NCBI GenBank assembly: GCA_963846575.1
Contig: CAWJWJ010000002.1
Coordinates: 608,001 to 672,000 of the forward strand
DNA length: 64,000 nt
Source of the DNA: an uncultured Nitrospiraceae bacterium
Lineage (GTDB): Bacteria; Nitrospirota; Nitrospiria; Nitrospirales; Nitrospiraceae
Reading direction: 5' to 3'
In this document: one piece after another, positions 2,988 through 59,256 of the stretch
Position numbering within the stretch: position 1 is the stretch's first letter
How the letters are laid out: every line of letters begins with the position of its first letter
The notes under the pieces: model-generated
What the model was told of the DNA's origin: nothing
The model's input: the letters and a program-made list of their open reading frames with translations, nothing else
The model's database searches: none
Program-made: the position numbers and the translations under genes

Positions 2988-2994
2988 GATTGCA

Positions 2995-3906: not shown

Positions 3907-3976
3907 GGCGCGGGATTGTACCATAGGTAGTCCACCGAACCGCATGGGTTTCCTCGGAAAACCTCCGATGGGGCGA

Positions 3977-4006
3977 TTGACAGCCGATTCGGCCTGGTGC
4001 TATATC
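3977..4006 (+). promoter_or_regulatory. Sigma70-type promoter for the nadE leader
   Basis: TTGACA (3977-3982), 18-nt spacer, TG-C-TATATC (hexamer at 4001-4006). Confidence 0.6.
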
Positions 4007-4021
4007 ATCGCCACGCTTTCT

Positions 4022-4116
4022 GGGGACAATGGAGTCTCCGACGGGTACGCGGTCAAACATGGCGCAGGACAACGACGTCCTCTGATCCACCCTGTGGGTC
4101 CGAGGACGTTTTTTTT
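4022..4116 (+). promoter_or_regulatory. ANTAR-type dual hairpin with overlapping intrinsic terminator (attenuator)
   Basis: GGGGAC-AATGGA-GTCTCC (4022-4039) and AGGAC-AACGAC-GTCCT (4066-4081); competing terminator ACGTCCTC...GAGGACGT with a T-run ending at 4116. Confidence 0.8.
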
Positions 4117-4265
4117 ATCAACATGGCAAAATCGGTCCTCAGTCTCGCCCCCGGTTGCCCATCCACCCCGAGGTACGACCCACAGTACGCCCCGGTGTCC
4201 GGGCTCCTTTCGGACTTGTTGAAGGACCAATCGGCCCGCGTTGCTACAAGCCGAGAGATTCGCTG

Positions 4266-6035: not shown

Positions 6036-6052
6036 CATACGTCCCGTATGAC

Positions 6053-6164
6053 GACCGACAATGACGTCGGTCAGCGAGGCTGGCAATGGCGCCAGAGGAT
6101 AACAGATCGTGGCCTCACCTTGAGGCTGACGGAACAATCTTTCTTATTCTTTGGGAGGTGCCAT
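6053..6164 (+). promoter_or_regulatory. ANTAR-type dual hairpin, possibly controlling access to the downstream RBS
   Basis: GACCGAC-AATGAC-GTCGGTC (6053-6072) and CTGGC-AATGGC-GCCAG (6080-6095); ATGGCGCC (6086-6093) is complementary to GGTGCCAT (6157-6164) at the RBS/start. Confidence 0.72.
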
Positions 6165-7059: not shown

Positions 7060-7141
7060 GTTCGGCCAGCCGCGTGAGGCCAGGGCGAGGAAAGGCGGCA
7101 CCTTTCCGGCCCCGGCTTCCCGATGCGAAGGAGGCGCGATC

Positions 7142-8467: not shown

Positions 8468-8503
8468 ATGACGCCATCGGCCGAGCGCGGTCGGCGATTC
8501 TAG

Positions 8504-8851
<348 letters not shown>

Positions 8852-8853
8852 GT

Positions 8854-11538: not shown

Positions 11539-11587
11539 GACGCAGGGAGTGGGTAGTCATTTCATCGGGGGTTGAAAGGAGGAGGGG

Positions 11588-12997
11588 ATGAACGTTCGTG
11601 AGGTGTTAGAGTTTGCAAAGAAGAACAAGGTCCAGGTCGTGGACTTAAAATTCGTGGACCTGATCGGCACCTGGCAGCATTTCACGATTCCAATCAGTGA
11701 GCTGACCGAGGGTCTGTTCAAGGATGGTTCCGGGCTTGACGGATCATCGATTCGAGGCTGGCGCGCGATCAACAACAGCGACATGCTGCTGGTGCCTGAT
11801 CCGACCACCGCCTTCCTCGATCCCTTCTGTTCCGTGCCGACCCTGAGTCTCATCGGCAATGTCGTCGATCCGATCACGCGGGAAACCTACGATCGGGATC
11901 CTCGTTTTATCGCACAGAAGGCGGAGAAATATCTCCAGAGCACCAAAATCGGCGACATCTCCTACTGGGGCCCCGAAGCCGAATTTTTCATTTTCGACCA
12001 TGCGCGCTATGACCAGACGAATCACAGCGGCTACTACTTCATCGATTCCGACGAAGGCGTGTGGAACATGGGTCAGGAAGGCGTGAACCTAGGCGGCAAA
12101 ATCCGTCACAAGGAAGGGTATTTTCCGGTCCCGCCGACTGACACGCAGCAGGACATTCGCACTGAAATGGTGCTGGAGATGGAAAAGGCTGGCATCGCGA
12201 CCGAAAAACATCACCATGAAGTCGCTACGGCAGGTCAGGCTGAAATCGATATCCGTTTCGACAGCCTGGTCAAAACCGCTGACAAAATGATGATGTTCAA
12301 GTACATCGTCAAGAACGTCGCGCGGCGACACGGCAAGACGGCCACCTTCATGCCAAAGCCGATCTTCGGTGACAATGGTTCGGGCATGCATACGCACCAG
12401 AGCATCTGGAAAGAGGGCAAGCCTCTCTTCGCCGGGAAGGAATATGCCGGGGTGTCCCAATTGTGCCTGCATTACATCGGCGGCATTCTCAAGCATGCAC
12501 CGGCGCTGGCCGCCTTCACCAATCCTTCGACGAACTCGTACAAGCGGTTGACGCCTGGGTTTGAAGCGCCGGTACTCCTGGCCTATTCGAGTCGCAACCG
12601 ATCGGCCGGTATCCGCATTCCCATGTATTCACCGAGCCCCAAGGCGAAGCGTATCGAAGTACGTTTCCCGGACCCTGCGGCGAACCCCTATCTCGCCTTT
12701 GCCGCCATGCTCATGGCCGGTTTGGACGGTATCGAGAATAAGATTAATCCAGGCGAGCCGGCTGAGAAGGATCTGTACGATCTCGAGGCCAAGGAAGCCG
12801 CCAAAATTCGAACCATGCCAGGAAGTCTGGATGAGGCGCTCAGTCACCTCGAAAAGAACCACCAGTTCCTTCTAAAAGGCGGGGTTTTCAGCGAAGATTT
12901 GATCGAATCGTGGATCAGCTACAAGCGCAGCAAGGAAGTCGATACGATGCGCTTGCGGCCCCATCCCTATGAATTTTTTCTGTACTACGACGTGTAG
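11588..12997 (+). CDS. glnA: Glutamine synthetase type I
   Basis: [35 protein letters not shown], adenylylation loop KDLYDL. Confidence 0.99.
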
Positions 12998-13019
12998 TGA
13001 TAATTTCCTGTTCAGACTC

Positions 13020-13048
13020 TTGACGAATCGAACGAAGGATGGTAGAAA
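13020..13048 (+). promoter_or_regulatory. Sigma70-type promoter for the FNT-cynS-nirA leader
   Basis: TTGACG (13020-13025), 17-nt spacer, TG-G-TAGAAA. Confidence 0.55.
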
Positions 13049-13066
13049 TTCAACCCGTAGGTGAAA

Positions 13067-13162
13067 GGAGGCAATGACGCCTCTATCGCCCGCACCAAAT
13101 ACCAAGTAAACGGACAAAGGCGTCCGTCATTCTTTCGAGAGTGGCGGACGCCTCTTTATTTT
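13067..13162 (+). promoter_or_regulatory. ANTAR-type dual hairpin plus terminator (first attenuator)
   Basis: GGAGGC-AATGAC-GCCTCT (13067-13084) and ACGGAC-AAAGGC-GTCCGT (13110-13127); 16-bp terminator stem 13118-13153 with a TTCG loop, then CTTTATTTT. Confidence 0.85.
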
Positions 13163-13164
13163 CA

Positions 13165-13269
13165 GCCGACGTTGTGGTCGGCATTCCAAAAACAAGCGGG
13201 GTCTTCCCCGACTGGCTGAGCAGGACAATGGCGTCCTCATCCCGACAGCGGGGTGGGGACGTTTTTTTT
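13165..13269 (+). promoter_or_regulatory. Second ANTAR-type hairpin plus terminator (tandem attenuator)
   Basis: GCCGAC-GTTGTG-GTCGGC (degenerate loop) and AGGAC-AATGGC-GTCCT (13222-13237); terminator CGTCCTCATCCCG-ACAG-CGGGGTGGGGACG followed by T8. Confidence 0.72.
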
Positions 13270-13308
13270 AGCTTGAACGGGCCCATCGACCACCCACAGG
13301 AGGAGCGT

Positions 13309-14139
13309 ATGCATACAGCGGATCATGAGCGGATCGCAGGTATCGCGGCAAAGAAGTGGTGGTTTTTTGAGCAATCTCCAGGCGGGTATCTCATCCTGTC
13401 CGCACTGGCCGGGATCTATCTCGGATTCGGGATCGCGTTGATCTTCAGCGTAGGGGCACCGTTGGCGGCTGCCGGGTCTCCGGCGGTCAAACTCATCATG
13501 GGGGTCTCCTTCGGGATCGCGCTGACTCTCGTCATTTTCGCGGGATCGGAGTTGTTTACCGGCAACAACATGATCGGAACGATCGGTGGCCTGTCCAGGA
13601 GCCTGTCATGGGGACAGGTCATTCAGCTGAATTTCTGGTCATGGCTGGGGAATCTTGTAGGATCGCTAGGTCTCGCCTGGCTGGTGATTCAGTCGGGCGT
13701 GTTCAGCAAGGGCCCGGCGGCGGAGCTGATCGAGAAAGTGGCCGCGGTCAAGATGTCCCTGCCTGCATGGGAGTTGTTCCTGCGCGGGATTCTCTGTAAT
13801 TGGCTTATTTGTTTGGCGGTCTGGATGACGGGCCGCACGGGCAACGACACGGCAAAAATTCTCCTGATCTTTTGGTGTCTCTTCGCCTTCATCGGCACCG
13901 GCTTCGAACATAGCATCGCCAATCAATCGTTCTTGGGCATGGCGCTCTTCCTGCCCCACGAAGCGGCCATCAGCTGGGCGGGATTTTGGTACAACCAGGC
14001 GTTCGTCGTGCTGGGTAATGTCGTGGGCGGGGGTCTGTTCGTCGGCGGGCTGTACTGGATGGTGAGCCCCTATAGGGTGCCGGACAAGCAGCTGGCTGCG
14101 GCGCCTCAACCCGTTTCTTCGGCAGTCGTCGGTTCGTAA
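13309..14139 (+). CDS. Formate/nitrite transporter (FNT) family; nitrite or cyanate channel candidate
   Basis: LAGIYLGFG, GSELFTGN, GILCNWLICLAVW, GFEHSIAN; AGGAGGAG RBS. Confidence 0.93.
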   Translation: MHTADHERIAGIAAKKWWFFEQSPGGYLILSALAGIYLGFGIALIFSVGAPLAAAGSPAVKLIMGVSFGIALTLVIFAGSELFTGNNMIGTIGGLSRSLSWGQVIQLNFWSWLGNLVGSLGLAWLVIQSGVFSKGPAAELIEKVAAVKMSLPAWELFLRGILCNWLICLAVWMTGRTGNDTAKILLIFWCLFAFIGTGFEHSIANQSFLGMALFLPHEAAISWAGFWYNQAFVVLGNVVGGGLFVGGLYWMVSPYRVPDKQLAAAPQPVSSAVVGS

Positions 14140-14180
14140 CGGTCGAGCTTATTCACACGCAGATCTTTGAAAGGAGAGAC

Positions 14181-14624
14181 ATGATGGAAAAAGAGGTCAT
14201 GAAGAAAGCAATTCGCGCACAACGCATGAACAAAAAGGTGACGATCGCGGAAGTCGCCAAGACCGTCGGTAAGAATCCGACGTTCGTGGCGGCGGCGTTG
14301 AACGGCAATCACCGCCTCACTCCCGAGGAGGCATTGAAGGTCGGAAAATTGCTGGACCTGGATAAGGAACAAATCGGGTCCCTCAGTACCTTTCCCATCC
14401 GGACGGACTTTCCGAATGCAACGGATCCGTTCAAGTATCGCTTGTTGGAAGTCATCGGCGTCTACGGAGATTCGCTACGGGAGATGGCCAATGAAATGTT
14501 CGGCGACGGGATCATGAGTGCCATTGATTTCACTCTGGACCTGGAGAAAGTGACCGGCAGCCAGGGCGAAGCCCGCTGCAAGATCACTCTGAACGGTAAG
14601 TGGCTTGAGTACAAAACATTCTGA
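14181..14624 (+). CDS. cynS: Cyanate hydratase (cyanase)
   Basis: TDPFKYRLLE, EMFGDGIMSAIDF, ITLNGKWL. Confidence 0.96.
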   Translation: MMEKEVMKKAIRAQRMNKKVTIAEVAKTVGKNPTFVAAALNGNHRLTPEEALKVGKLLDLDKEQIGSLSTFPIRTDFPNATDPFKYRLLEVIGVYGDSLREMANEMFGDGIMSAIDFTLDLEKVTGSQGEARCKITLNGKWLEYKTF

Positions 14625-14675
14625 ACGGAATGGCGCGCTAGGGACTGGCCGGCGATCGTACGAAGGGAGGACCTC

Positions 14676-14870
14676 ATGAACACGAACCCGGAATCTGCGG
14701 TGTTGACACTTCTTGAGCAACAAGCTCCCCAAACGTTCGAGAAATTAATGGCCTTGTCCGGTCTGAGCGCGTCACAGGTGCTGCTGGTGGTGGACCGTTT
14801 GAGTCGGAGGGGATCGGTGATACTCAGGAAGTCCGGACCGGACTATTCGGTCGGCTTAGGAGACGTGTGA
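14676..14870 (+). CDS. Small hypothetical protein, possibly winged-helix
   Basis: GGAGG RBS; stop overlaps the nirA start (GTGATGA); pattern resembles helix-turn-helix plus wing. Confidence 0.6.
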   Translation: MNTNPESAVLTLLEQQAPQTFEKLMALSGLSASQVLLVVDRLSRRGSVILRKSGPDYSVGLGDV

Positions 14871-16465
14871 TGAACAAAATTGAGGCGATCAAGTCGGAAC
14901 GAGACGGGTTGTCGGTGCGCGACATGATCGCACAATATGCGCAAACCGGCTGGGAGACCATTCCCGAGGAGGATATCCAACGGTTGAAATGGTACGGGCT
15001 GTTTTTGAGAAACCCCACACCGGGTCATTTCATGCTCCGCGTGCGAATTCCGGGAGGGCGCACGACATCCACGCAGCTCGAGACGTTGGCGGACATTGCA
15101 CTGCAGTTTGGCAACGGTGTCGTCGACGTGACCACGAGACAACAAATCCAACTCCGTCATTTGACCATCGAGCATGTCCCCGCGGTTTTTGCCAGGCTGG
15201 CGGATTCGGGACTCACATCCCTGCAAACCGGCATGGACACGGTCCGCAACATCATGACCTGCCCGGTAGCGGGCTTGAACCCGAATGAAGTGCTGGACGG
15301 CACGGACATCGTGCGCGCCATCAACGAGGAGATCTTGGGCAATCCTGCCTATACCAATCTGCCTCGCAAGTGCAATATCGCTGTGACCGGATGCCCGGAC
15401 AATTGTCTCCATACGGAGACGCAAGATATTGCGCTGATACCGGCTTATCACGATTTGGGACATGACAAGTGTTATGGCTACAACGTGCTCGTCGGGGGGA
15501 AGCTGGGATCCGGCGGGTATCGAATTGCAAGTCCGCTGGACATGTTCGTGAATCCGGCAGAGGCCCTCGAGGTGTGCCGAACCATTCTCCATATCTATCG
15601 CGAGCATGGACCGCGCGAGAATCGCACGCAAGCGCGTCTCGCGTTTCTGGTCGAAGCCTGGGGTGAAGCGCGGCTACGGCAAGAGGTTGAGGCCCGCGTG
15701 GGCCGTGTTCTGCCTGCGGCCGGCGTCGACGCCAGAGGGGCGAGCGAGCGCGACCACATCGGCATTTTTCGTCAGAAGCAACGGGGCATGAACTATATCG
15801 GCCTCAAGGTCCTCGTCGGTCGGGTGAACGCGTCCGATCTTCGGAAGGTTGCCGCATTGGCGGGGCGATACGGCACGGGCGAAGTGCGGCTTTCTCCGGC
15901 ACAGGCCTTCATAATCCCGCATGTCAGCGACCGGCTGGTGGGCGAACTGGCCGAGGAGCCGCTCGTCAAGCAATTCGCCTACAACCCTTCAGCACTCTAT
16001 AAGGGGCTCGTCAGCTGCGTGGGGAGCGACTATTGCAACCTGGCCGTGATCGAAACAAAAAGCCGGGCCGTCGAAACCGCGCAGGTTCTGGATCGCAAGC
16101 TGGGAGATGGCCTCAAGCCCATTACGCTGCATTGGTCCGGTTGTCCGGCCGGCTGCGGAAACCACCTCGTCGCGGACATCGGACTGCTGGGAAAGAAGGC
16201 AAAGGTCGGCGGAAAGGTGGTCGATGCCGTTGATGTGTTCGTCGGCGGCCGATCGGGGCCCGATCCTAAACTGGCCACCAAGATCATGGAAGATGTGCCT
16301 TGCGACAAGCTCCCGGCGGTGCTGGAGTCACTCATGCCCTACCATACGCGAGAAAAAATGCATCGCGTGCGTGGAAAGGCGGTGTCCAAAGGAATGGGAG
16401 CGATGAGGCCTGCAGAAGATCGAAGCGAAACGCGGGCATTTACGCCGCAACCGTTATCAGCCTAA
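14870..16465 (+). CDS. nirA: Ferredoxin-dependent assimilatory nitrite reductase
   Basis: FMLRVRIPGG, TTRQQIQL, TNLPRK, SCVGSDYCN and HWSGCPAGCG siroheme/[4Fe-4S] motifs. Confidence 0.92.
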   Translation: MNKIEAIKSERDGLSVRDMIAQYAQTGWETIPEEDIQRLKWYGLFLRNPTPGHFMLRVRIPGGRTTSTQLETLADIALQFGNGVVDVTTRQQIQLRHLTIEHVPAVFARLADSGLTSLQTGMDTVRNIMTCPVAGLNPNEVLDGTDIVRAINEEILGNPAYTNLPRKCNIAVTGCPDNCLHTETQDIALIPAYHDLGHDKCYGYNVLVGGKLGSGGYRIASPLDMFVNPAEALEVCRTILHIYREHGPRENRTQARLAFLVEAWGEARLRQEVEARVGRVLPAAGVDARGASERDHIGIFRQKQRGMNYIGLKVLVGRVNASDLRKVAALAGRYGTGEVRLSPAQAFIIPHVSDRLVGELAEEPLVKQFAYNPSALYKGLVSCVGSDYCNLAVIETKSRAVETAQVLDRKLGDGLKPITLHWSGCPAGCGNHLVADIGLLGKKAKVGGKVVDAVDVFVGGRSGPDPKLATKIMEDVPCDKLPAVLESLMPYHTREKMHRVRGKAVSKGMGAMRPAEDRSETRAFTPQPLSA

Positions 16466-17753: not shown

Positions 17754-19011
17754 ATGAATAACCCAGGCTCTCATTCCCTGTCTGGTGATCCCTGCGGGGC
17801 AACCTCGAGTGGCATCAGGCCCAGAGTTCGGGCTGGTTGGCCGGCCGGAGACGGATGCAGGGCTGCCGGAGTGGTCCTCGTGCTCACTTTCAGCCTGATG
17901 TCGAGCCCTTGGACGGGGCAATCCGGCGCGGGGCCGCCACCTCCCTCCGTGACCAAGGGGGTGAAGTGGCATCCAGGCCACTACGTAACGATCATGGGGT
18001 GGGGAAAAAATCCGAAGTACCTGGAGGATGTGTACGCAGAGCTCAAGGTCACGTCCGCCTTGCGCGGGGTGCAGATTCGATACTTGTGGGCCGAACTGGA
18101 ACCAGCAGAAGGTCGGTATGATTTCACGTCCATCGACCAGCGGCTGGCGGAACTGAACACCCTGGGTAAGCGACTCGTGATCCAGGTGCAAACGAAATCG
18201 TTCGACCCGGGGTCGAAGCTCGTGCCGGACTATCTGAAAGGCGTTGAGTATGACGGGGGGGATTTCCCGTTTGCGTCGCAGAAGAAGGGGAAGCGAGCCG
18301 CCCACAACGTCACTCCAGGAGGGCACAACATCGCCTTATGGAATTCCCGCGTGCGCGATCGTCCGATTGCCCTCTTTCAGGCCCTGGGAGAGCGCTACAA
18401 CTCCCATCCTTCTTTTGAAGGGATCGGGATGATTGAAACAGCGTTAGGGGAATCGCTCGTCCCCCTCTCGACCGACAAGATCGACGGCTTCTACGCGAAT
18501 CTCCTGGAGGTGCACCGGCAGATGCGCGCGCAGTTTCCCAATACGATGACCATTCAAGAGGTGAACTACCCGCGTCCGATTCTCCCGGCCTTCGTCGGCA
18601 GACTTAAAGAAATGGGGACTGCGCTGAGGCAGACTTAAAGAAATGGGGACTGCGCTGAGCGGCCCCGATATATTCAAAGACGAGCCGGGATTGAACATGA
18701 ATACTCCCCCTGCTCCGAGAGGTATCTACACCTACTATCCGGCACTTTCCGGTATCGTCCCCCTGGCGCCGCAGGTGATGAGGAATAACTATCGGAACAC
18801 CCGCGGTGATGGAAAAGGGGCAGTGCCCACCGTGTCAGAAAATCTTGCGTTCGCTCGGGATGGTTTGAAGTCGAACTATGTCTTTTGGGCAAGGACTCCG
18901 GATGACTTTCCACGAGTGCCTGAGATGCTGACTCAGCCCGCACAAACCGGCGATCCGGCCGGGGGATTAGCCTCGATCTGTCCGAAGGCCTATGGGACCT
19001 GCGTGGACTAG
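17754..19011 (+). pseudogene. Secreted glycoside-hydrolase-like protein (beta-galactosidase-like barrel), frameshifted
   Basis: YLWAELEPAEGRYDFTSID and ALGERYNSHP motifs; ORFs 17754-18638 and 18643-19011 join if one copy of the 31-bp duplication is removed. Confidence 0.75.
18597..18658 (+). repeat. Perfect 31-bp tandem duplication
   Basis: GGCAGACTTAAAGAAATGGGGACTGCGCTGA at 18597-18627 and 18628-18658. Confidence 0.97.
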
Positions 19012-19520: not shown

Positions 19521-21788
19521 TCACAACTTCCCAAACATCCTCTCAAAAAACTGCTTCGTTGCTCTCATGTGCTCCTCAAGATCCGTCTGTAGATGCCTCG
19601 CTCCGGCTTGCCAATCGTCGGTGGTGTAGCCGACACGGCGGGCGAGAAAGACAAAATCATCGGAGTCCGTTGCCGGGAGCACGAGATCCTTGGCATTGCC
19701 ACGCACCATGCGCAATCCGTCGATCAGCATCCGAATGAAGAGGTAGGCTTTGCGCAGCTGTTCGCCGTCCTGCCGGGTTACAATTCCACGCCCGACAAGC
19801 CCTGCCAGCGCTTGCATGCTATTGGGTGTCCGCAAGGTCGGGTGTTGGTGTCCATGCATGAGTTGAAGGTATTGAATCGCATATTCAATGTCGACGAGCC
19901 CTCCGGCGCTATGTTTCACATTGACGGTTCCGGGCTCAACGAGTTGCTTCAGTTGCTGCCGCCTGAGGTCGAGGGCGACGGCGAGATCCCACGGTGTGCC
20001 GCTGTAGACGTACCGATCCCGATGGGCTTCGACCTGTTTTCCCAGCGCGGCATCTCCGGCAACGCTCCGAAGCTTGATCATGGCCTGTCGCTCGAAGGGC
20101 GCCGCCAGGCCGCCGGCGCTGTAATAACTGGCGATTTCGTCGAGAGGATTGGTGAGAGAGCCCTTGCCACCATGAGGGCGCAGGCGAATATCGAGATGGA
20201 AGATGCCTTCCTGTTTGGCTTCGATGCCTTGTAGGAGTTCTTGTGCGAGCCGTTCGAAATATTCGCTATTCTCGATGCTTATTTTTCCGCTAGTACGGCC
20301 TGCGCCGCCGTAGACGAAGAGGACCTCAATGTCCGATGCGTAGCCGAGCTCGCGGCCTCCGAATTTCCCCATCCCGAGTACGGCGAAGGGACAGGGTGTT
20401 TTAGTTGTCAGGCGCGGGGCACCATATTGTTTCCCCAACTTGCTTTGGCAATCGCGCAGACTGCGTTCGACGATCACCTCGGCGAGCTCCGTCAGCGCTT
20501 CTGAAAAGTCAGCGAGGCTTGAAGCATCCGCCATGTGCTTCATGTCGATGCGGAAGAGTTCCTGATCCTTGAATCGATTCAGGACCTCCTTGCGCGCAGC
20601 CTCGGTCTTGGCTTTGGCCATGAGGCGGTCGAGTTCCTTCCGGAGACCTGCTTGGGGCTTGATAAGCGGCGCATCGCGGTAGTCTTTTAAGAGGGGCAAC
20701 AGATTGCCATGCTGTCGGCGAAGAAAATCTTCCCATAAAAAGTCGCTGGTCCCCAGCAGGCGGGCGAGAATGGGAAAAGTCTTCTTGTCATTGAGAAAGG
20801 CGAGAGCCTGTTGCTGGGCCTTCCCTTTTGCCTCCTGCACGGTGAGGTCGAGGAATTGGTCGAAGGCTTCCAAGGCCTTGGCCGGGTCCGGCGCCCAGGT
20901 CAGGGCATGAGTGAACTGTTTGATAAGCACCGCGGTCAGACGCAGATGTTGTTGGTCGACGGAATCGGTGAGTTTTCGGCCGTGTCGATTCCGCACGTAA
21001 AAGCGATCGTGCAGCTTGTCACCCTCGATCGAGAATTGTGCTTTGGCAATGTAGATGTTGCGCATGGCCAGGGCATTGGCAAAGGCATAGAGAAAGGCCG
21101 GAGTGTCGTCTGATTGGATCTCCATCACGGTGTCCGTGGGGGACTGGCCATTGTCGAAGGTGATCTGAACAGTGTGCAGAAGGCCGCTGAATGCACTGCG
21201 GCGTTGTCCCAGGTATTCGACCAGTTGCCGGTTCACTGCCTGGCGTGCTTCGTCAAACTGGCCGCCGTCCAAAAGCGTAATCATCGCCGTGAGCTCGTTC
21301 ATCAGCCGGCTGCGATCGCCCTGTTGAAATGACGCGCCGCGCACCGGCTGCACGCGAAAGACGTCGACGATTTTTTTTCTGCCCAGACCGGGGCGGCCTT
21401 TCGGCCGGCCAAGTGTGTCGCCGGTCCAGTTGGTGCGAGTCGCAGGGGGTGCTTCGACGAAGGTGTAAATCCGCCCCTCTTCGATGTTTAGCCCGAAGGC
21501 GGAGAGGAGGCCGCAGATGGTGGCGAACTCGGAGAAGTAGTCATAGGCCACGATGGTGATGGTACAGCGGCCGTCGGTCGCGTCGGCGATTGACAGATCG
21601 CAGAGGTGGTCCGGCGTGAGTGTGGCGGCCTGCTTGATATGGCTCGCGAGAATTTTCGGAGAGAAGGCCGTGAAGTAATCGGGGTCCATCCGGTTGATGA
21701 AGTCCTGCAGAATGTCGGTGTCCACGCCTTGGCAGATCGGCGTGAGAGTCGCGAGGAGACGATCGCGAGCGGCATCAGCAGGCAGCAT
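19521..21788 (-). CDS. glnE: GlnE-like protein: N-terminal ACT-like domains plus one nucleotidyltransferase module
   Basis: LGMGKFGGRELGYASDIEV, DIRLRPHG, FERQAMIK, VKHSAGGLVDIEY; ACT-like TITIVAYDY and TVMEIQSDDTPAFL. Confidence 0.8.
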   Translation of the reverse strand: MLPADAARDRLLATLTPICQGVDTDILQDFINRMDPDYFTAFSPKILASHIKQAATLTPDHLCDLSIADATDGRCTITIVAYDYFSEFATICGLLSAFGLNIEEGRIYTFVEAPPATRTNWTGDTLGRPKGRPGLGRKKIVDVFRVQPVRGASFQQGDRSRLMNELTAMITLLDGGQFDEARQAVNRQLVEYLGQRRSAFSGLLHTVQITFDNGQSPTDTVMEIQSDDTPAFLYAFANALAMRNIYIAKAQFSIEGDKLHDRFYVRNRHGRKLTDSVDQQHLRLTAVLIKQFTHALTWAPDPAKALEAFDQFLDLTVQEAKGKAQQQALAFLNDKKTFPILARLLGTSDFLWEDFLRRQHGNLLPLLKDYRDAPLIKPQAGLRKELDRLMAKAKTEAARKEVLNRFKDQELFRIDMKHMADASSLADFSEALTELAEVIVERSLRDCQSKLGKQYGAPRLTTKTPCPFAVLGMGKFGGRELGYASDIEVLFVYGGAGRTSGKISIENSEYFERLAQELLQGIEAKQEGIFHLDIRLRPHGGKGSLTNPLDEIASYYSAGGLAAPFERQAMIKLRSVAGDAALGKQVEAHRDRYVYSGTPWDLAVALDLRRQQLKQLVEPGTVNVKHSAGGLVDIEYAIQYLQLMHGHQHPTLRTPNSMQALAGLVGRGIVTRQDGEQLRKAYLFIRMLIDGLRMVRGNAKDLVLPATDSDDFVFLARRVGYTTDDWQAGARHLQTDLEEHMRATKQFFERMFGKL

Positions 21789-21855: not shown

Positions 21856-25328
<3,473 letters not shown>

Positions 25329-32561: not shown

Positions 32562-33896
32562 ATGATTGACCGGTATACCCGTCCGCGGATGAGTGCCATC
32601 TGGGACCTGCAGCACAAGTACGAAATCTGGTTGGAAGTGGAACTCCAAGCCTGTGCCGCCTTTGAGCGAGACGGGCAAATTCCTCGTGGAACCAGTGCCC
32701 GTATTCGCAAAAAAGCCGTCATTGACGTGGGTCGCATTGCGGACATCGAAAAGGTCACGAAGCACGATGTCATTGCATTTCTGGAATCACTGATGCATTC
32801 CGTGGGGCCGGAACACCGCTTCCTTCACATGGGCTTGACCTCATCGGACATTGTCGATACGTCGCTTGCGGTGCAAATGACCGAAGCGCTGGATCTCATA
32901 CTCGAAGACCTCGACGGGTTGATCGCCGTGTTGAAGGAACGAGCCCTGGAACATCGCCACACAGTCATGGTCGGTCGTTCGCACGGCATACATGGCGAAC
33001 CGGTTTCGTTCGGCTTTAAACTGGCGATCTGGTACGAGGAGGCCTGCCGGCATCGAACCAGACTGCAAGCGGCCCGCAAAGATATCGCGGTAGGCAAGCT
33101 TTCGGGAGCAATGGGGACCTTCGCACATCAAGGTCCGGAAATCGAGGAATATGTCTGCGGCAAGATGGGACTGGCCTCGGACCCGGTGTCGAATCAAGTC
33201 GTACAACGTGACCGGCATGCAGCCTACGCCTCAGCGCTGGCATTACTGGCGGCCAGCATTGAGAAAATCGCGACGGAGATTCGTCACCTCCAGCGGACGG
33301 AAGTGCTTGAAGCGGAGGAGTATTTCTCTGAGGGGCAAAAGGGCTCGTCGGCGATGCCGCACAAACGCAATCCGATCGCCTCGGAAAATCTCTGCGGCCT
33401 GGCTCGGCTGGTCCGGGGCAACAGTCTGGCTGCACTGGAAAACGTCGCACTCTGGCATGAGCGGGACATCAGCCATTCGTCGGTCGAGCGGGTGATCATG
33501 CCGGACAGCACAATCCTGGTGGACTACATGCTCGCTCGCGTGACCGACCTCGTGAAGAATCTGATTGTCTATCCCGAGCGCATGAAGCGGAACATGGACC
33601 TGACCGGAGGACTGGTATTCTCTCAGCGATTGTTGCTGGCGCTTATCGAGAAGGGGGCACAGCGAAAAGAGTCCTACGAGGCCGTGCAGCGCAATGCCAT
33701 GACCGCCTGGAAAGGCGGGATCGGTTTTCAGGAACTTGTCGGTCAGGATGCGTTCATCACAAAACATCTAAAGCCCAGCGAGATCACGGCTTGTTTCGAC
33801 CCTATGTATTATTTGCGACATCTCGATCAGGTGTTTCGTCGTGTGTTTGGGGCCAGTGCGGTGGCGTCGGGACGAGGCCGTAGGAGGCGGACATGA
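32562..33896 (+). CDS. purB: Adenylosuccinate lyase
   Basis: GSSAMPHKRNP, LWHERDISHSSVER. Confidence 0.98.
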   Translation: MIDRYTRPRMSAIWDLQHKYEIWLEVELQACAAFERDGQIPRGTSARIRKKAVIDVGRIADIEKVTKHDVIAFLESLMHSVGPEHRFLHMGLTSSDIVDTSLAVQMTEALDLILEDLDGLIAVLKERALEHRHTVMVGRSHGIHGEPVSFGFKLAIWYEEACRHRTRLQAARKDIAVGKLSGAMGTFAHQGPEIEEYVCGKMGLASDPVSNQVVQRDRHAAYASALALLAASIEKIATEIRHLQRTEVLEAEEYFSEGQKGSSAMPHKRNPIASENLCGLARLVRGNSLAALENVALWHERDISHSSVERVIMPDSTILVDYMLARVTDLVKNLIVYPERMKRNMDLTGGLVFSQRLLLALIEKGAQRKESYEAVQRNAMTAWKGGIGFQELVGQDAFITKHLKPSEITACFDPMYYLRHLDQVFRRVFGASAVASGRGRRRRT

Positions 33897-34687
33897 AGCT
33901 CTGGGCTATTGTCAGGGGCACGCTGGTGGTTGCTCTGTGTATGGTGGGGCCTGCTCTGTCGGTGAACGCAACGGAACGGGATACGCTGTTGACCGATCCC
34001 GGCGTGTACGGGACCTTTGCCTCATTCCAGGTGGATCACGACTGGTGGGATCTCACGGGCGAAGCGCGCGTCATCGCGGTGTCTGAAGCGAAAGGATTGA
34101 TCGAACAATTCTCGAACAAGATCGTAATCGACTCCTACCTTCTGCGCGGGCTCTCGGACCATGCCGATTTTATGTTGAGGGTGCATGCCCATGCATTGGC
34201 GGATACGCAACAGTTTCTGACCTCATTATTGGGCACACGTTTCGGGCGTCATCTCGTGGCAGTCGACTATCTGCACGGCCTCACCAGGAAGGTCGCGTAT
34301 GTGCCTGGATTTCCCGATCAGATGAAGAAGGACCTGCAGGCACCGAGCGACCCCGGGGCCAAGTCCTATGCGATCGTGATTCCAATCAGAAAAGACGCCG
34401 ACTGGTGGGCTTTGGATCAGAACACGCGCGTGACGCTCATGCAGGAACACACCCAGGCGGCGCTTCCCTATTTGAATGCCGTCAAACGGAAACTGTATCA
34501 CTCCAGTGGTCTCGATGACTTCGACTTCATTACCTATTTTGAGACGGAAAAACTCGACGAGTTTCACGACCTCATCCGGGCACTCGAACAGGTGAAGGAA
34601 TTCCGCCACAACCGACGATTCGGGCATCCAACACTGCTGGGGACCGTCAGGTCGCTGGACGACATTCTTGAATTGTTCGCGCGGTAG
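33893..34687 (+). CDS. cld: Chlorite dismutase (long periplasmic clade-1 type)
   Basis: Signal peptide; IPIRKDADWW, proximal His in QEHT, KRKLYHS with distal Arg, DFITYFET; closely resembles the Nitrospira Cld as I recall it. Confidence 0.93.
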   Translation: MKLWAIVRGTLVVALCMVGPALSVNATERDTLLTDPGVYGTFASFQVDHDWWDLTGEARVIAVSEAKGLIEQFSNKIVIDSYLLRGLSDHADFMLRVHAHALADTQQFLTSLLGTRFGRHLVAVDYLHGLTRKVAYVPGFPDQMKKDLQAPSDPGAKSYAIVIPIRKDADWWALDQNTRVTLMQEHTQAALPYLNAVKRKLYHSSGLDDFDFITYFETEKLDEFHDLIRALEQVKEFRHNRRFGHPTLLGTVRSLDDILELFAR

Positions 34688-39191: not shown

Positions 39192-40622
39192 ATGCCGAGA
39201 GACTTACCACTGATTTCTCCAGATAAATTCCATGATGAGTGCGCCGTCTTTGGTATATACGGCCACAAGGAAGCAGCCAATCTCGCCTATCTCGGCCTGT
39301 ACGCTCTCCAACATCGAGGCCAAGAAGCGTCTGGAATCGTCTCCAACGACGGGGAGCATTTTTATATCGAGAAGGGTCAGGGCCATGTGGCTGACGTGTT
39401 TTCCCAGCAAATCCTGGCGGGGCTGCCAGGGACAATGGCGATCGGTCACAATCGTTATTCCACGGCCGGTGGAGCAGGGCTCAAGAATGTGCAGCCGTTG
39501 AGTGTCAATTTTGCATTCGGCAATCTGGCCGTGGCGCACAATGGAAACTTGATCAATGCCACCATGCTACGTAGCGAATTGGAGGCCTATGGCGCCATTT
39601 TCCAATCTACGTCGGATACGGAAGTCATCATTCATCTCATCGCCCATTCACGAGCGGATACCCTCCTCGATCGCGTTATCGATTCATTGACTCAGGTTCG
39701 CGGCGCTTTTTCGGTGGTCCTGATGACGGATCAGGGGATTATCGCCGCAAGAGACCCTCATGGATTCAGGCCGCTTTGTTTGGGGCGTTTTCGTGATGCC
39801 TGGATCGTGGCTTCCGAGAGCTGTGCGTTCGATTTGCTGGATGCCGAATATGTGCGGGAGATTGAACCAGGAGAGTTGGTGGTACTGGACCATCAGGGTG
39901 TCACAAGTTACAAGCCATTCGCGTCAACCACTCCGGCAATGTGCGTATTCGAATATGTGTACTTCTCCCGTCCCGATAGTCGAATTTTTGGTGGCCGCGC
40001 GGTCTATTCGATTAGAAAAGCCTTCGGGCGGCAATTGGCACAGGAATCCATGGTGTCGGCGGACATCGTAATTCCGGTTCCCGATTCCGGAGTGCCGGCA
40101 GCGCTTGGATTTTCAGAGGGATCGGGAATTCGTTTTGAGACCGGCCTCATTCGGAATCATTACGTGGGGCGAACCTTCATCGAACCGGAGCAGTCTATTC
40201 GCCACTTCGGGGTAAAGGTAAAGCTGAACGCAGTTCCTGAGGTCCTGGAGGGGAAACGTGTGATCGTGGTGGACGATTCGCTGGTTCGCGGAACTACAAG
40301 TCGAAAAATAGTGAAGATGTTGCGTCATGCCGGGGCAAAAGAAGTCCATATGCGGATCAGTTCCCCGCCAATTGTGTCACCTTGTTTTTACGGAATTGAC
40401 ACACCAACCAAGAAAGAGCTGATTGCCTCAAGTCACACAACCGAAGAAATCCGGAAGTACATCACTGCCGATAGCCTGGCCTATTTGAGTTTGGATGGAA
40501 TGTTGAAAGCCTCGCCGGGTGTCCCAGCGCAGTATTGCAATGCCTGCTTCACGGAACGGTACCCCATTTCGTTTACACGTGCCGAGGAACTTCAATTGGG
40601 TCTCTTCGAGTCCTCCCGCTAA
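39192..40622 (+). CDS. purF: Amidophosphoribosyltransferase
   Basis: Propeptide followed by catalytic Cys (DE-C), [23 protein letters not shown]. Confidence 0.98.
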
Positions 40623-40702: not shown

Positions 40703-41146
40703 ATGTCCCTTGTTAGGAAATATCAATTGATCGCTGCCACTGGATTCGTGGTGGCTGCGATCCGAATCGCTTTGCGGATGACGAGTCTTCCGCGACTCTT
40801 AAGGTGGTTGACTTGCAAGGCAGTATCTCGAGGGCACGGTCCACTCGCAATGGAAGATGTTGCATACTACGTTGAACGCTGGCTTGCGCTGGCTCCGTAC
40901 AACTCCAAGGGAAACTGTCTTCCTCGTGCCTTGACTCTATATTGGTTTGCCCGCCGCGCCGGTGTCCCCGTCCAGTTTCAATGCGGTGTGATGAAGATTA
41001 GTGAAGGCATCGAGGGCCATGCCTGGTTGATGCTGGATGGGCGGGAGTTCTTTGAGCCATCACCGTACTGGCGTGACTTCACCGTGACGCTTAGTTTCCC
41101 TCCCATGCCCGTCCCGCGGAATACTCAAGCGTCGAATTCTAAGTAA
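40703..41146 (+). CDS. Lasso-type leader peptidase (B2, transglutaminase-like)
   Basis: NCLPRAL...GVPVQFQCGV...EGHAWLMLDG gives the Cys-His-Asp arrangement of lasso B2 proteins. Confidence 0.88.
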   Translation: MSLVRKYQLIAATGFVVAAIRIALRMTSLPRLLRWLTCKAVSRGHGPLAMEDVAYYVERWLALAPYNSKGNCLPRALTLYWFARRAGVPVQFQCGVMKISEGIEGHAWLMLDGREFFEPSPYWRDFTVTLSFPPMPVPRNTQASNSK

Positions 41147-41479
41147 GAGTCTCACTTTCCCTAGAAGCCTGGCCACGATTTTCCTGCGCCTCTCGTTTTA
41201 GTTCTCCTGTTCCCTGTGACACGATCTGTCTATCCTGAGCCTTCGCACAGATCGATTCAACAATCCATCCAACTGTGTCTTCACTCCGACGGCTCCCCCA
41301 AATGGGAGAGCCACCCCAACCTCACGGGAATAGATAAGGCATGGGTGAGAAAGTATGTTTGCCCTTCGGAGGCGAGGACAACGGCGACGGGCAGTGCTAT
41401 CGCTATGATTGCTGTCGCACCGCCGGGAAGAGCGTTCGCTATAGTAGTCGGTTTCATGGTCGTCGTATCAGGAGGGTGC

Positions 41480-41797
41480 ATGCCTGCCATTACACACGAT
41501 TCGGTTGATCGGATGGTCGAGTTGTCTCACCTTTTTCCAAAGCGAAACGAAGATGTACATAGCACGATGTTGGATGGAGAAAGCGTGTTGCTGAATCTCC
41601 ACACCGGACGCTATTACACCTTGAACGTCGTGGGATCGATTGTGTGGGATTTGTCTACGGGAGATCGGTCGCTCAACGAGGTTGTCGCGACTATCTGCGA
41701 AAAGTTTGATGTTACGGCTCGGCAAGCGCAAGACGATCTGCTTGATCTCGTCGTCGAACTTGATCAGGAAGGGCTCATTCAAACCGAAAGGAGGTGA
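41480..41797 (+). CDS. PqqD-family RiPP recognition element (B1/RRE)
   Basis: LDGESVLLNLHTGRYYTLNVVGSIVWDL...AQDDLLDLVVELDQEGLI; GGAGG RBS. Confidence 0.92.
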   Translation: MPAITHDSVDRMVELSHLFPKRNEDVHSTMLDGESVLLNLHTGRYYTLNVVGSIVWDLSTGDRSLNEVVATICEKFDVTARQAQDDLLDLVVELDQEGLIQTERR

Positions 41798-41802
41798 AGT
41801 AG

Positions 41803-41922
41803 ATGGATCAACAGAAGAAAACCGTTTATGTGAAGCCAACGCTTGTGAAGCACGAGTTGCTGCGCGATGTGACGGCTCTACAGCTTTCCCGCGTGCTCAA
41901 TGGAGAGCATCAGGTAACGTAA
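41803..41922 (+). CDS. Putative RiPP precursor, 39 aa: MDQQKKTVYVKPTLVKHELLRDVTA-LQLSRVLNGEHQVT
   Basis: Too short for the ORF track; RBS AAGGAGGTGA overlaps the RRE stop; leader matches YxxPxL-x9-T-x spacing; followed by a strong hairpin. Confidence 0.85.
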   Translation: MDQQKKTVYVKPTLVKHELLRDVTALQLSRVLNGEHQVT

Positions 41923-41948
41923 CGCCGACGCTTTGATGAGAGTGAGGG

Positions 41949-41983
41949 GGGAGTTGGTCGGTCTTCTCGACCGGCCAGCTCCC
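41949..41983 (+). terminator. Stem-loop after the precursor gene (terminator or mRNA stabiliser)
   Basis: GGGAGTTGGTCGGTC-TTCTC-GACCGGCCAGCTCCC, 15-bp stem including GU pairs, no U-tract. Confidence 0.7.
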
Positions 41984-42036
41984 GTCTGCGGAAGTGATGA
42001 GCATAGTAGCACGAGGGGCTGAAAGGAGAGTGGGTA

Positions 42037-43077
42037 ATGTCGATGACATTGGCAACAAATGAGCTTCTCCTCTCTGTCCATGGCATCGATCTGGTCTTTA
42101 CTACCAATTCTCCAGAGTTGGCGAATTCCGTGGCGGCGTTACTGCGTCATTTCCAATGCCAGGCTGTCAATGCGGACGCCATGCTGATGCAGTTTGATAG
42201 GGTCGAGTGTCGTGAGGACATCCCACTCCAGATTTCGAGCACCGCATCCTTATTGTACAGCGGCTCCGGCCTTATGATTGGGGGCAAGAGGAAGGCAACC
42301 TGGCTATGCGACATTTACTCGGAAGAGGGGAGATTGATCGCAGACTTCCACGAAGAAGGAGTCGTGGTTATCGATGGAACATCGCAATCTGTACTAGGAT
42401 ACCTTGTGCGGCCTGAGCTTATGGCGTCAGATATTCAGGTCAGTTTTGTGCACCTTGCCATGATCGAACTCCTCAAACGGAGAGGTCTATATACCTTTCA
42501 TGCCACGGCACTGGAAAAGAATGGGCGAGGCATCTTGATCCCCGGGTTCAGCGGAAGAGGTAAAACCACCTCGTTCCTATCCCTACTTAGAGCTGGATAT
42601 CGCTATATATCGGACGATCATCCATTCTTTCGACTTGCCGGTGATCGCGTGGAGATTCTGCCTTATCCACTCAAAATTAACGTAACCGAAAGTACCGTGT
42701 CGTACTTTCCCGAATTGCGTGATGCGCCGGCAACCGTTCTGCGCGCCGGTTCGCCTAAACGTTATTTTTACGTTGATGATGTATATCCTGGGCCCTTAGG
42801 AGCACCATGTGACGCAACGATGATTCTATTTCCCGAAATTGCTGACTCCGCTCATAGCTGCTTAGAGCCACTCTCGAAACGGCAATCGTTGGAATTGATC
42901 CTCCCGCATTCATTGCTCGTGTACGATGCACAAGTCGCTCGTCATGAATTTCAAGCGCTCGTTAAGTTGATCGATCAGGCAAGTTGTTACCGGTTGCACT
43001 TTGGGCGCGACGTTCTGGATTTGCCTTGGCTGGTGACGCCGCTCCTGGAGAATCAAACAATGAGGCGCGAGCACTGA
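42037..43077 (+). CDS. HPr-kinase-like P-loop kinase (RiPP tailoring candidate)
   Basis: FHATALEKNGRGILIPGFSGRGKTT and YISDD. Confidence 0.85.
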   Translation: MSMTLATNELLLSVHGIDLVFTTNSPELANSVAALLRHFQCQAVNADAMLMQFDRVECREDIPLQISSTASLLYSGSGLMIGGKRKATWLCDIYSEEGRLIADFHEEGVVVIDGTSQSVLGYLVRPELMASDIQVSFVHLAMIELLKRRGLYTFHATALEKNGRGILIPGFSGRGKTTSFLSLLRAGYRYISDDHPFFRLAGDRVEILPYPLKINVTESTVSYFPELRDAPATVLRAGSPKRYFYVDDVYPGPLGAPCDATMILFPEIADSAHSCLEPLSKRQSLELILPHSLLVYDAQVARHEFQALVKLIDQASCYRLHFGRDVLDLPWLVTPLLENQTMRREH

Positions 43078-43079
43078 GA

Positions 43080-44375
43080 ATGAGGAAACCTCTGCAGCCT
43101 ACGGCAATCCGCCGGAATCGATTTCAGTCAAGGGATAGTTCGCACAGGTGCATGACGCCAAATCCAGTAACATCTCAGATGCATCTGGAAGGTCGGCTCA
43201 TCGTGCTCTGTGCGCGGACGACGATCAATGAGTTTATCCGGGTTGAGGTCGAGGATTTGATCAGTGAGACCATCGATTGGGATCGCGTATGGCGGATGTC
43301 GAGGCAACAGGGAGTGGCGCCACTGGTGTATCGCACCCTGTCCTCCCTTTGCCCTTCGGTGGTACCGTCCCACATCCATAACGCCTTCCGTCGGCACATT
43401 CAGGCCAATACCCTTTTAAACAGTTTGCTTGTCAAAGAGTTAGTGGCCGTGATGGAGGGTTTGGCGGCAAAGGGCATTCGAGCCATTCCCTTCAAAGGCA
43501 TAACGCTCGCCATGACTGCCTATGGGGATCTTAGCCTGCGTGAATGCGCGGACTTGGATTTAATCGTCGAGCAAGGGGCAATCGCTCCGGCCAGGCAGGT
43601 ACTATGGTCCCAGGGTTATCAGCTCACTAGTCAGGATAGAGAACAAGCCAGTGAGAGCGATGAACCCTATCATTTCTTCCAGAAAAAGAACGGCATTATC
43701 GCCGTGGATCTTCAGTGGGTAATGGCCAGAAGCCACTTTTCCTTTCGACTGGACCGGAGCGAATTCTGGGCCAGGCTGAAGCCGGTGCATTTACCGGCAG
43801 GAAGTGTGATGGGCCTTAGCCCGGAAGATCTCCTAATCCTGCTTTGTGTGCATGGATCAAAGCACGCGTGGGAACAGTTAAAGTGGACCTGCGATGTGGC
43901 CGAGTTAGTCCGACGGCGACCGACGTTGGATTGGAGCCGGGTCCTATTTCAGGCGGACGAATGGGGTTGTCGTCGAATGGTGCTCCTGGGCCTGACGATG
44001 GCTAGAAACCTGTTCGGCACTGTGCTGCCAGGTGCTATTCTCCACGAAATTGAAATAGATGCAGATATCCCAACGCTGGTCCGCCACATGCCAAATCAGT
44101 TGCTGAAGGAATCTGATGTGGGCATTGATGAAGGTTGCGCGGATGCCCTGTATATGTCTATCAAGGATGCTTGGCTGGAACGTTGGAAGCTTGCTGCTGC
44201 GCTCTGCCGTGAGGACGCGAGCGTGCTCACCATGTCACTTTCTTGGTTCCGGCTGCAATCAAGGCTTCGGGTATTCTATGCATGCATTCAGCCACTCCAT
44301 CGGATTATCGTTAAGTGCGTGCCCTCCACTCGGATTCGCAAAGCGGTTGTTCGGTGGCTACATAACATTGGCTGA
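43080..44375 (+). CDS. Nucleotidyltransferase of the type found in lasso clusters (NTP_transf_5-like)
   Basis: PFKGITLA, YGDLSLRECADLDLIV, VDLQW, LCVHGSKH..LKWTCD. Confidence 0.85.
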   Translation: MRKPLQPTAIRRNRFQSRDSSHRCMTPNPVTSQMHLEGRLIVLCARTTINEFIRVEVEDLISETIDWDRVWRMSRQQGVAPLVYRTLSSLCPSVVPSHIHNAFRRHIQANTLLNSLLVKELVAVMEGLAAKGIRAIPFKGITLAMTAYGDLSLRECADLDLIVEQGAIAPARQVLWSQGYQLTSQDREQASESDEPYHFFQKKNGIIAVDLQWVMARSHFSFRLDRSEFWARLKPVHLPAGSVMGLSPEDLLILLCVHGSKHAWEQLKWTCDVAELVRRRPTLDWSRVLFQADEWGCRRMVLLGLTMARNLFGTVLPGAILHEIEIDADIPTLVRHMPNQLLKESDVGIDEGCADALYMSIKDAWLERWKLAAALCREDASVLTMSLSWFRLQSRLRVFYACIQPLHRIIVKCVPSTRIRKAVVRWLHNIG

Positions 44376-58046: not shown

Positions 58047-59256
58047 CGTAAGCTTCCCTTAATCTGAGACAGATCAAAAGGAGAATCTTCTGGCACAATA
58101 GCTTACCCTAGCCAGGAGGTTCCCATGCGCCAGTCGAAGTTCACCGAAACCCAAATCGTATCGATTCTAAAAGAGGCCGATGCCGGTCGCCCGGTCAATG
58201 AGCTGTGGCGGACGTACGGGATCAGCTCCGCGACCTATTACAAATGGAAAGCCAAGTACGGCGGCCTCGACGCCTCGGACGTGAAACGGCTGAAAGAATT
58301 GGAACACGAGAACAACCGCCTCAAGCGGATGTATGCGGATCTCTCCCTGGAGAACGCGGCGCTCAAGGATGTGATCGCAAAAAAGCTTTAAGGCCCGCTG
58401 AGCGGCGGGAGGTCGTCACGCACCTGGTGACGGTGAGCGGCCTTCCGGTTCAGCGGGCCTGTCAGGCGGTCGGCCTGGGGCGGGCGACGTACTATCGGCC
58501 GCTCACCAATTGGGCGCAGCGCGATGCGCCCGTGATTGCGGCACTGACGACCTTGAGTGCCACGAAACCTCGTTGGGGGTTCTGGAAATACGTGGGCTGG
58601 CTACGCCATACCGGACAGCCCTGGAATCCTAAGCGGCTGTGGCGGGTCTACTGCCACCTCAGGCTCAATCTGCCACGACGGACCAAGAAGCGGCTGCCGG
58701 TGCGGCTCATGCAGCCGATGGACGTGATCCCACAGCCCAATGTCGTGTGGGCACTCGATTTCATGAGTGATACGCTGTACGGTGGCCGACGGTTCCGGAC
58801 CTTGAATATTCTGGATGAAGGGGTGCGAGAAGTCTTGGCGATCGAAGTCGATACCTCCTTGCCCGCCGAGCGTGTGATTCGGGTGCTGGAGCAAGTGACG
58901 GCCTGGCGGGGCCAACCGCAGGCCATTCGGCTCGACAATGGCCCGGAATTCCTCGCCGACCGCTTTGCGACTTGGTGTGCGGAGCGTGGGATCGCGCTCC
59001 GGTTTATTCAGCCGGGCAAGCCGAATCAGAATGCCTTCATTGAACGGTTCAATCGGACGGTACGACACGAAGTGCTCGATGCATATGTCTTCGAGTCGCT
59101 CGAGCAGGTGCGAGAAATCAGTGCGCAGTGGATGCAGGAGTACAATGAGGAACGCCCCCATGACACCTTGGGGCGAGTGCCACCGGCCCTGTTCAGCGCC
59201 CGACAAACCGCCGGAAGTTCTCCTCTGAAACTGTCTCCTTGACGGGGAAGCTTACG
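58047..59256 (+). mobile_element. Complete IS3-family insertion sequence (1210 bp, IS407-like)
   Basis: 26-bp imperfect inverted repeats (19/26 match; CGTAAGCTTCCC...GAGACAG) at 58047-58072 and 59231-59256; 4-bp target duplication CCTC at 58043-58046 and 59257-59260. Confidence 0.95.
58125..59242 (+). CDS. IS3 transposase OrfAB (OrfA 58125-58391; OrfB joined by -1 frameshift)
   Basis: OrfA HTH (GISSATYYKWK); slippery A-AAA-AAG at 58379-58385; OrfB DDE motifs WALDF, DNGPEF, IERFN. Confidence 0.95.

Follow-up and report, generated by a model that had tools for sequence, protein, structure and literature searches.

What does a gene cluster make when it carries the leader-handling enzymes of a lasso peptide pathway and no cyclase? 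The question is raised by a five-gene locus of an uncultured Nitrospiraceae bacterium (assembly GCA_963846575.1), analysed here within a window of 64 kb, the whole stretch of contig CAWJWJ010000002.1 from 608,001 to 672,000, part of a genome of 4.2 Mb with a completeness of 99.9%. After purF (39192-40622) come, all co-oriented, genes for a B2-type leader peptidase, a stand-alone recognition element (RRE) of ribosomally synthesised peptides that are post-translationally modified (RiPPs), a precursor, an HprK-like kinase and a nucleotidyltransferase (NT), followed by a thioredoxin-like gene. This arrangement is the one described in the initial annotation, and all of the enzymes have domain matches; the annotation was also right that cyclase and ABC exporter are missing nearby, as neither an asparagine-synthetase-like gene nor an ABC ATPase was found in the 64-kb window. 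The host is Nitrospira-like and, as had been supposed, a probable nitrite oxidiser: where homologues of the kinase are named, they come from Nitrospira, and the genome encodes two long molybdopterin proteins resembling NxrA. Of the two explanations first offered, a cyclase acting in trans or a linear phosphorylated or nucleotidylated peptide, our analysis favours the latter. The locus likely encodes a cyclase-free, lasso-derived pathway to a short linear phosphopeptide, a reading supported by the absence of a cyclase, cores unsuited to ring closure, an invariant Ser4 and intact catalytic motifs.

The precursor consists of a 25-residue leader and a predicted 14-residue core, LQLSRVLNGEHQVT. With Tyr at -17, Pro at -14, Leu at -12 and Thr at -2, the leader has the YxxPxL motif and the Thr that characterise lasso leaders. 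We compared it with a clade set of 33 precursors comprising 27 distinct cores, cores being taken to begin right behind T(-2)A(-1), the canonical cleavage point. Across this set, core length ranges from 8 to 14 residues, Ser4 and Arg5 are present in 33/33, and the tail drifts; a degenerate tandem copy at one locus (L031), missed by the search pattern, keeps Ser4 without Arg5. Known lasso peptides have 15-30 residues and a ring acceptor at positions 7-9, as described in PMC6993621. The window's core lies outside these limits, its sole acidic residue being Glu10 and its C-terminal residue Thr. Asp or Glu is missing at positions 7-9 from 18 of the 33 clade cores, and the remaining 15 leave just 1-4 residues past the acceptor. 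Because they are so short and mostly have no acceptor in that range, the clade cores, judged by their predicted sequences, cannot form lassos. Selection has preserved the serine motif near the core N-terminus and let the C-terminal tail vary.

No macrolactam cyclase was recognised in the cluster or in the genome. Seven full-length proteins of the genome match PF00733, all retaining the N-terminal catalytic Cys1, and they reach 400-511 bits on the glutamine-hydrolysing model TIGR01536 versus 158-349 bits on the lasso cyclase model NF033535, on which two of them attain 336-349. Their gene neighbourhoods consist mostly of glycosyltransferases, methyltransferases and epimerases (18 of 19 scanned proteins have a Pfam match). 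A control cyclase from another family of the order (L069) shows the reverse profile, 389 bits on NF033535 versus 243 on TIGR01536, with Ser replacing Cys1; the locus in which it lies (L069:7601-12681) is a complete lasso-type cluster of RRE, B2, cyclase, precursor, kinase and NT. Across the genus, none of 39 genomes exceeds the NF033535 cut-off of 525, and three more high scorers on this model likewise begin with Met-Cys-Gly. The proposal of a cyclase in trans was rejected on the scores as glutamine amidotransferases, the retained Cys1, the glycan-type gene context and the short, unsuitable cores.

The five genes are not a chance assembly, because B2 and NTP_transf_5 each occur once in the genome, a six-frame scan finds a single precursor-like open reading frame, and the gene order is kept across the genus; PqqD matches number two genome-wide. 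In the peptidase, the B2 identity first assigned holds and the Asp proposed as third catalytic residue probably does not: among 60 aligned proteins, Cys72 is conserved in 59, His106 in 58 and Glu118 in 58, and since Asp112 is kept in only 39, the catalytic triad is probably Cys72-His106-Glu118. The RRE finds TbiB1 (5v1u), 9x90 and 9x8z among PDB sequences. All motif residues of the kinase are present (H155, G170, G173, G175, K176, T177, D193, D194), with spacing identical to that of the tested BsfK motif H148-G163-G166-G168-K169-S170-D186-D187 (PMC10368454), and the protein scores too far below the HPr-rel-A and HPr-rel-B cut-offs (TIGR04352, TIGR04355) to be counted in either family. The NT retains D158-x-D160 and D210. 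Its predicted model (pLDDT 86) matches minimal nucleotidyltransferases, namely MenT1 (Z 13.1, root-mean-square deviation 3.2, 179 residues aligned), ANT(2'') (11.2, 3.4, 164), LnuA (9.7, 3.7, 148) and FKRP (7.0, 3.7, 152), a likeness of fold that by itself assigns no function; a profile search of the NT against PDB sequences gave nothing credible. With all catalytic motifs intact, the enzymes look active. The ratio of nonsynonymous to synonymous substitution rates (dN/dS), given as pairwise medians over pairs with dS 0.05-1.5 (median dS 0.7-1.1), is 0.20 for B2 (55/190 pairs), 0.17 for the RRE (67/210), 0.13 for the kinase (52/253) and 0.11 for the NT (74/325), values 6-12 times the 0.017 of purF. 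The operon is under purifying selection.

We propose that the RRE binds the YxxPxL leader and that the HprK-like kinase would then phosphorylate Ser4 of the core, possibly several times. This predicted site lies one residue further out than Ser3, which BsfK and LppK phosphorylate with the help of an RRE (PMC13381572, PMC10368454). The third step is the least certain: the NT may cap the phosphate with a nucleoside monophosphate (NMP) or, in the manner of PsmN, act en route to a sugar on the phosphate, PsmN being known to add hexose to phospho-Ser and to need D134/D136 (PMC6993621). Finally, B2, aided by the RRE, would cut after T(-2)A(-1) and release the linear 14-residue core. Leader binding, Ser4 phosphorylation and B2 release are modelled on BsfK/BsfB1/BsfB2 and LppK, and the less certain capping step on PsmN. 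A dedicated exporter was found neither in the window nor at any of 28 clade loci (the best genome match to the relatives' exporter is 31% identical), so the product is probably retained inside the cell or leaves through a general transporter.

Where such a pathway came from is indicated by loci in other genera of the family, of which we read 40: a close kinase is encoded at 36 of them, and the other 4 belong to a distant radical-SAM type. None of the 40 contains a lasso cyclase, L104 having an exopolysaccharide (EPS)-type amidotransferase about 4 kb upstream; a cyclase beside orthologous clusters, which the initial annotation had named as the mark of an ordinary split lasso system, is thus not seen at the 36 close-kinase loci. 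Two of these (L074, L075) fall in the window's clade, intact loci of which also occur in two further genera. The remainder are mostly of two modules, both of which some genomes carry in tandem after purF. Module I has the order RRE-precursor-kinase-NT-B2-ABC exporter with Ser3 cores, while module II contains two ATP-grasp proteins (weak matches to TIGR04187 and MvdC/D-like models, below cut-off), RRE, precursor, kinase, a fatty-acid-hydroxylase-like gene and NT. Module II cores have the form Lys-Tyr3-x-Glu-Lys...Asp-Lys, reminiscent of microviridin cores. Of 66 precursors of module I/II type, 44 have Ser at position 3, 18 have Tyr and 4 have Gly. The Tyr3 ATP-grasp clusters, found at L087:3607-12696 and also at L090, L097, L082, L092, L095, L106 and L107, possibly represent a lasso-graspetide hybrid, and our literature search returned no description of them.

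The sister clusters, of which the literature search likewise gave no account, have in common with the window's clade the leader motif, RRE, kinase, NT and B2, the lack of a cyclase and often the site between purF and the thioredoxin-like gene. In a joint tree of kinase, NT and RRE (29 rows), the window's clade is a third type beside modules I and II with 100/100 support, and it groups at 89/95 (not starred) with the ATP-grasp-bearing L106 and L107. These two loci have the window's gene order, with an ATP-grasp pair in the B2-RRE gap that is an empty 336 bp here; more broadly, the gap is occupied in sister lineages by an ABC exporter or a GMC-oxidoreductase pair, together with two ATP-grasp genes. 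Neither of the cluster's two intergenic gaps shows a detectable remnant of ABC, ATP-grasp or hydroxylase genes (best blastx E 1.1 in the B2-RRE gap and 0.2 in the other), and the relatives' two ATP-grasp proteins have no tblastn match in the genome or in the 28 clade loci, which sets the cluster apart from graspetide systems. The closest relatives of the clade have an ATP-grasp pair and no cyclase. The window cluster probably arose by reduction from a larger Nitrospiraceae cluster with ATP-grasp ligases; those ligases are, with moderate support, the probable identity of the ring-forming enzymes that this lineage has lost. Nothing that we found points to a lasso cyclase having been lost recently.

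More distant relatives were also inspected. Ten distant-kinase loci (4 metagenome, 6 genome; several on short contigs) contain no cyclase-like gene in the available DNA. Four Nitrospiraceae loci of a separate cluster type (L110-L113, e.g. L111:8133-12494) combine B2, kinase, radical SAM protein, RRE and NT without a cyclase, and no precursor was found there with the search pattern used. Among distant metagenome-assembled genomes (MAGs), one from Chloroflexi has ATP-grasp-RRE-precursor-kinase, and one from Nitrospirales encodes kinase and NT along with a Ser3 precursor. In a Nitrospinota MAG (L138:295-2861), the kinase adjoins a B2-NT fusion protein, a fusion that links the B2 and NT steps.

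The synteny comparison envisaged by the initial annotation was carried out in the genus and the family, and it revealed, beyond conserved gene order and the absence of a cyclase, a newly found feature, namely that the NT outlives the rest of the cluster. The kinase matched 27/36 same-genus genomes and 140/284 family genomes (E up to 0.001, weak and distant paralogues included). We read 37 genus loci; 32 extend from purF through to the thioredoxin-like gene, and the other 5, ending on contig edges, were dropped. The order purF-B2-RRE-precursor(s)-kinase-NT-thioredoxin-like is fixed in the genus, with all five genes intact in 20/32 spanning loci, and the NT is present in 38/39 genus genomes.

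Several observations weigh against the phosphopeptide reading. Twelve of the 32 spanning loci have no intact kinase, so that the cluster is dispensable; the NT is nevertheless full-length and open in 11 of those 12 (in the twelfth assembly, purF and the thioredoxin-like gene are frameshifted too), and the NT tree places the kinase losses on at least 6 separate branches. In five related genomes (L131, L132, L144, L145, L146) the NT has K139 changed to H/R, D160 to E and D210 to N/K, and dN/dS is still 0.08-0.32 in every 60-codon window. Because the NT outlives the kinase and remains selected despite lost catalytic residues, its main job may not be on the peptide. LppN, moreover, produced no detectable change in the LPP study (PMC13381572), the Ser4 numbering rests on the predicted cut site, and the sister relation to the ATP-grasp clusters (moderate, 89/95) is not settled by single-gene AU (approximately unbiased) tests of module I versus module II placement (p 0.17-0.55). 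The NF033535 cut-off of 525 is also too strict when used alone, the real cyclase of L069 lying below it too, and for this reason a cyclase is judged absent by relative scores, Cys1 and gene context.

The NT observations are those expected if the locus were chiefly an intracellular regulatory or scaffolding module, in which the phosphopeptide or the uncut precursor would serve as ligand or switch and the NT, partly with the RRE, would have a partly non-catalytic role of its own that is mainly selected. Four of the five genomes with an altered NT retain the RRE, with an altered GRYY strand and dN/dS of about 0.28, and have no precursor, kinase or B2 at the locus; a precursor search of five reduced genomes gave no match, in a search run without a positive control, and their loci were read directly. 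Another genus has a DxD-degenerate NT beside the thioredoxin-like gene (L082, L092, L095), and the lack of an exporter orthologue and the fixed chromosomal site among housekeeping genes fit this explanation as well. It is opposed by the B2-NT fusion, which ties the NT to the peptide, by the fact that no partner or target has emerged, and by three loci (L105:8836-9969, L108:8267-9762, L134:7524-9002) whose purF site has kinase or RRE plus kinase only, with no precursor or NT seen, a pattern that could mean a positional effect. As the principal explanation we regard it as unlikely; it is compatible with the linear phosphopeptide reading, and the NT does seem to have some role independent of the peptide, perhaps a non-catalytic one in one lineage. 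Improbable, in our estimation, is the view that a larger ATP-grasp/kinase cluster has decayed here into a relic without functional product: the ATP-grasp pairs, hydroxylase and exporter of the sister clusters are indeed missing here, loss or frameshifts affect 12/32 genus loci, and dN/dS exceeds that of purF, but values of 0.11-0.20 at such dS, the clade-specific invariant Ser4-Arg5, a conserved hairpin with compensatory changes (see below), tandem precursor duplications and the intact loci in two further genera all indicate maintenance. The ordinary split lasso, with a cyclase elsewhere in the genome closing the ring, appears highly improbable. It could draw on the canonical lasso leader, RRE and B2, on the seven asparagine-synthetase-fold proteins with their two better-scoring members and on Asp8 in 12/33 cores, yet beyond the Cys1, score, context and core-length evidence given above, comparable matches persist in genus genomes that lost the precursor, and the 36 other close-kinase loci offer only the EPS-type amidotransferase of L104.

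Among described systems, the closest counterpart of the proposed linear phosphopeptide pathway is LPP (linear polyphosphorylated peptides), encoded by lppAKBSDN of Paenibacillus alginolyticus (Bacillota), in which RRE, HprK kinase and NTP-transferase act without a cyclase to give linear phosphopeptides, reported in 2026 (PMC13381572). Both systems have a separately encoded RRE, a kinase resembling HprK, an uncharacterised NTP transferase, a YxxP leader, one to three precursors, and a conserved Ser near the core N-terminus followed by a variable C-terminus; the LPP product is linear, as the Nitrospira product is predicted to be. They differ in the peptidase, which is a signal peptidase I of archaeal type in LPP and a B2 cysteine peptidase here (SipW-like proteins not searched genome-wide), and in the MsbA-like exporter of the LPP cluster, which has no equivalent in the window or the 28 clade loci. 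The LPP leader, YxxPxVLxHQxIxFETxxS with Ser3, shares only YxxP with the Nitrospira leader, where the predicted cut puts the conserved Ser at +4; cores of 8-14 residues and the fixed site after purF further distinguish the Nitrospira system. The bsf cluster of Bradymonas sediminis (PMC10368454) likewise unites B1, B2, kinase and NT, with the kinase motif spacing noted above, and its RRE-assisted phosphorylation of an internal Ser precedes leader removal, the same order that we propose; unlike the Nitrospira cluster, which lacks both cyclase and exporter and has Thr at -2 and Ser4, it has a cyclase, an ABC exporter, Ile at -2 (Ile/Val in the Bsf type) and a strict Ser3. Pseudomycoidin and paeninodin (PMC6993621, PMC9266682) also pair an HprK-like kinase with a DxD NTP-transferase (D134/D136 in PsmN, D158/D160 here), but they are modified on the C-terminal Ser of a cyclised lasso, whereas the Nitrospira cores are ringless, vary at the C-terminus and conserve an internal Ser. 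These two, chosen earlier for comparison, are therefore the wrong guide to the modified site, which resembles that of Bsf and LPP. Compared with lasso systems in general, the leader, RRE and B2 are of lasso type; a cyclase is missing, and the core does not conform.

The suggestion of an undescribed RiPP type was too strong, given that LPP-like cyclase-free pathways have already been described (PMC13381572). By analogy, the Nitrospira cluster would work like LPP, with a B2 peptidase of lasso type, with Ser4 and without an exporter, and it is not a new class. A literature search, with most subscription papers outside its coverage, found no description of the Nitrospira system; the string 'Nitrospir' has no match in the main text and 6 supplement files of the LPP paper (PMC13381572), nor in the passages available of PMC8939145, PMC13097080 and PMC7470986, whose unsearched supplements may list such clusters.

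The features of the cluster are collected in the table below. The hairpin recurs as a stem after the last precursor in 25/25 clade loci (z -1.7 to -6.6), and its consensus, built from 19 sequences, shows compensatory change in 8/10 pairs. It probably stabilises the mRNA or acts as an attenuator, and so raises the ratio of precursor to enzymes; the search for sigma-70-like promoters found none, and no terminator-like site was detected at the hairpin.

Features of the cyclase-free cluster, in positions of the 64-kb window
Feature	Position	Strand	Remarks
Lasso-type B2 leader peptidase, 147 aa	40703..41146	+	NF033537 51 bits (cut-off 33), PF13471
B2-RRE gap, 336 bp	41147..41482	+	No remnant of relatives' inserted genes detectable
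Stand-alone RRE, PqqD family, 104 aa	41483..41797	+	PF05402 61.9 bits; best PDB sequence match TbiB1
Precursor, 39 aa	41803..41922	+	AGGAGG ribosome site; canonical leader spacing
Codon of core Ser4, predicted phosphate acceptor	41887..41889	+	Ser4-Arg5 in 33/33 clade precursors; putative acceptor role by analogy with BsfK, LppK
Conserved 15-bp RNA hairpin	41949..41983	+	3' of precursor gene; z = -2.95
HprK-like peptide kinase, 346 aa	42037..43077	+	HprK-related A/B models 54.7 bits, cut-off 200
NTP_transf_5 (PsmN/LppN/BsfN-like) nucleotidyltransferase-fold protein, 431 aa	43080..44375	+	PF14907 223.6 bits

Elsewhere in the window, a nitrogen-assimilation block (2124-16462) encodes UreD, NAD synthase, an ammonium transporter, GlnD, glutamine synthetase, a formate/nitrite transporter and a nitrite/sulfite reductase. 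Two divergent genes, at 19524-21788 (-) and 21856-23667 (+), each contain one GlnE adenylyltransferase domain and are 29% identical, so that the usually two-domain GlnE appears split into two separate genes. A 31-nt exact tandem duplication lies at 18597-18658, a chlorite-dismutase-family gene (33893-34687) is located within the pur gene run, and an integrase-core (IS-like) gene occupies 58205-59239.

If the phosphopeptide reading is correct, the cluster would constitute a second, separate route from lasso machinery to linear phosphopeptides, in a widespread nitrite oxidiser. A broader and decidedly tentative picture is that nitrite oxidisers possess an intracellular system for signalling or tagging, derived from lasso machinery, in which a non-exported Ser4-phosphorylated peptide would receive from the NT a nucleotide- or sugar-linked phosphodiester, possibly tying it to a cell component; a second, catalysis-independent role of the NT, in one lineage shared with the RRE, would explain its near-universal retention in the genus, and sister genera would couple this leader machinery to ATP-grasp ligases and a core with Tyr3. 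With five small genes and a 14-residue product, the cluster may offer a simple test bed for the function of PsmN, LppN and BsfN and for how these kinases count to their target position, which within one kinase family would be Ser3, Ser4 and possibly Tyr3. The retention of an altered NT and an RRE without a precursor suggests, in addition, that RiPP parts may be recruited to non-biosynthetic roles.

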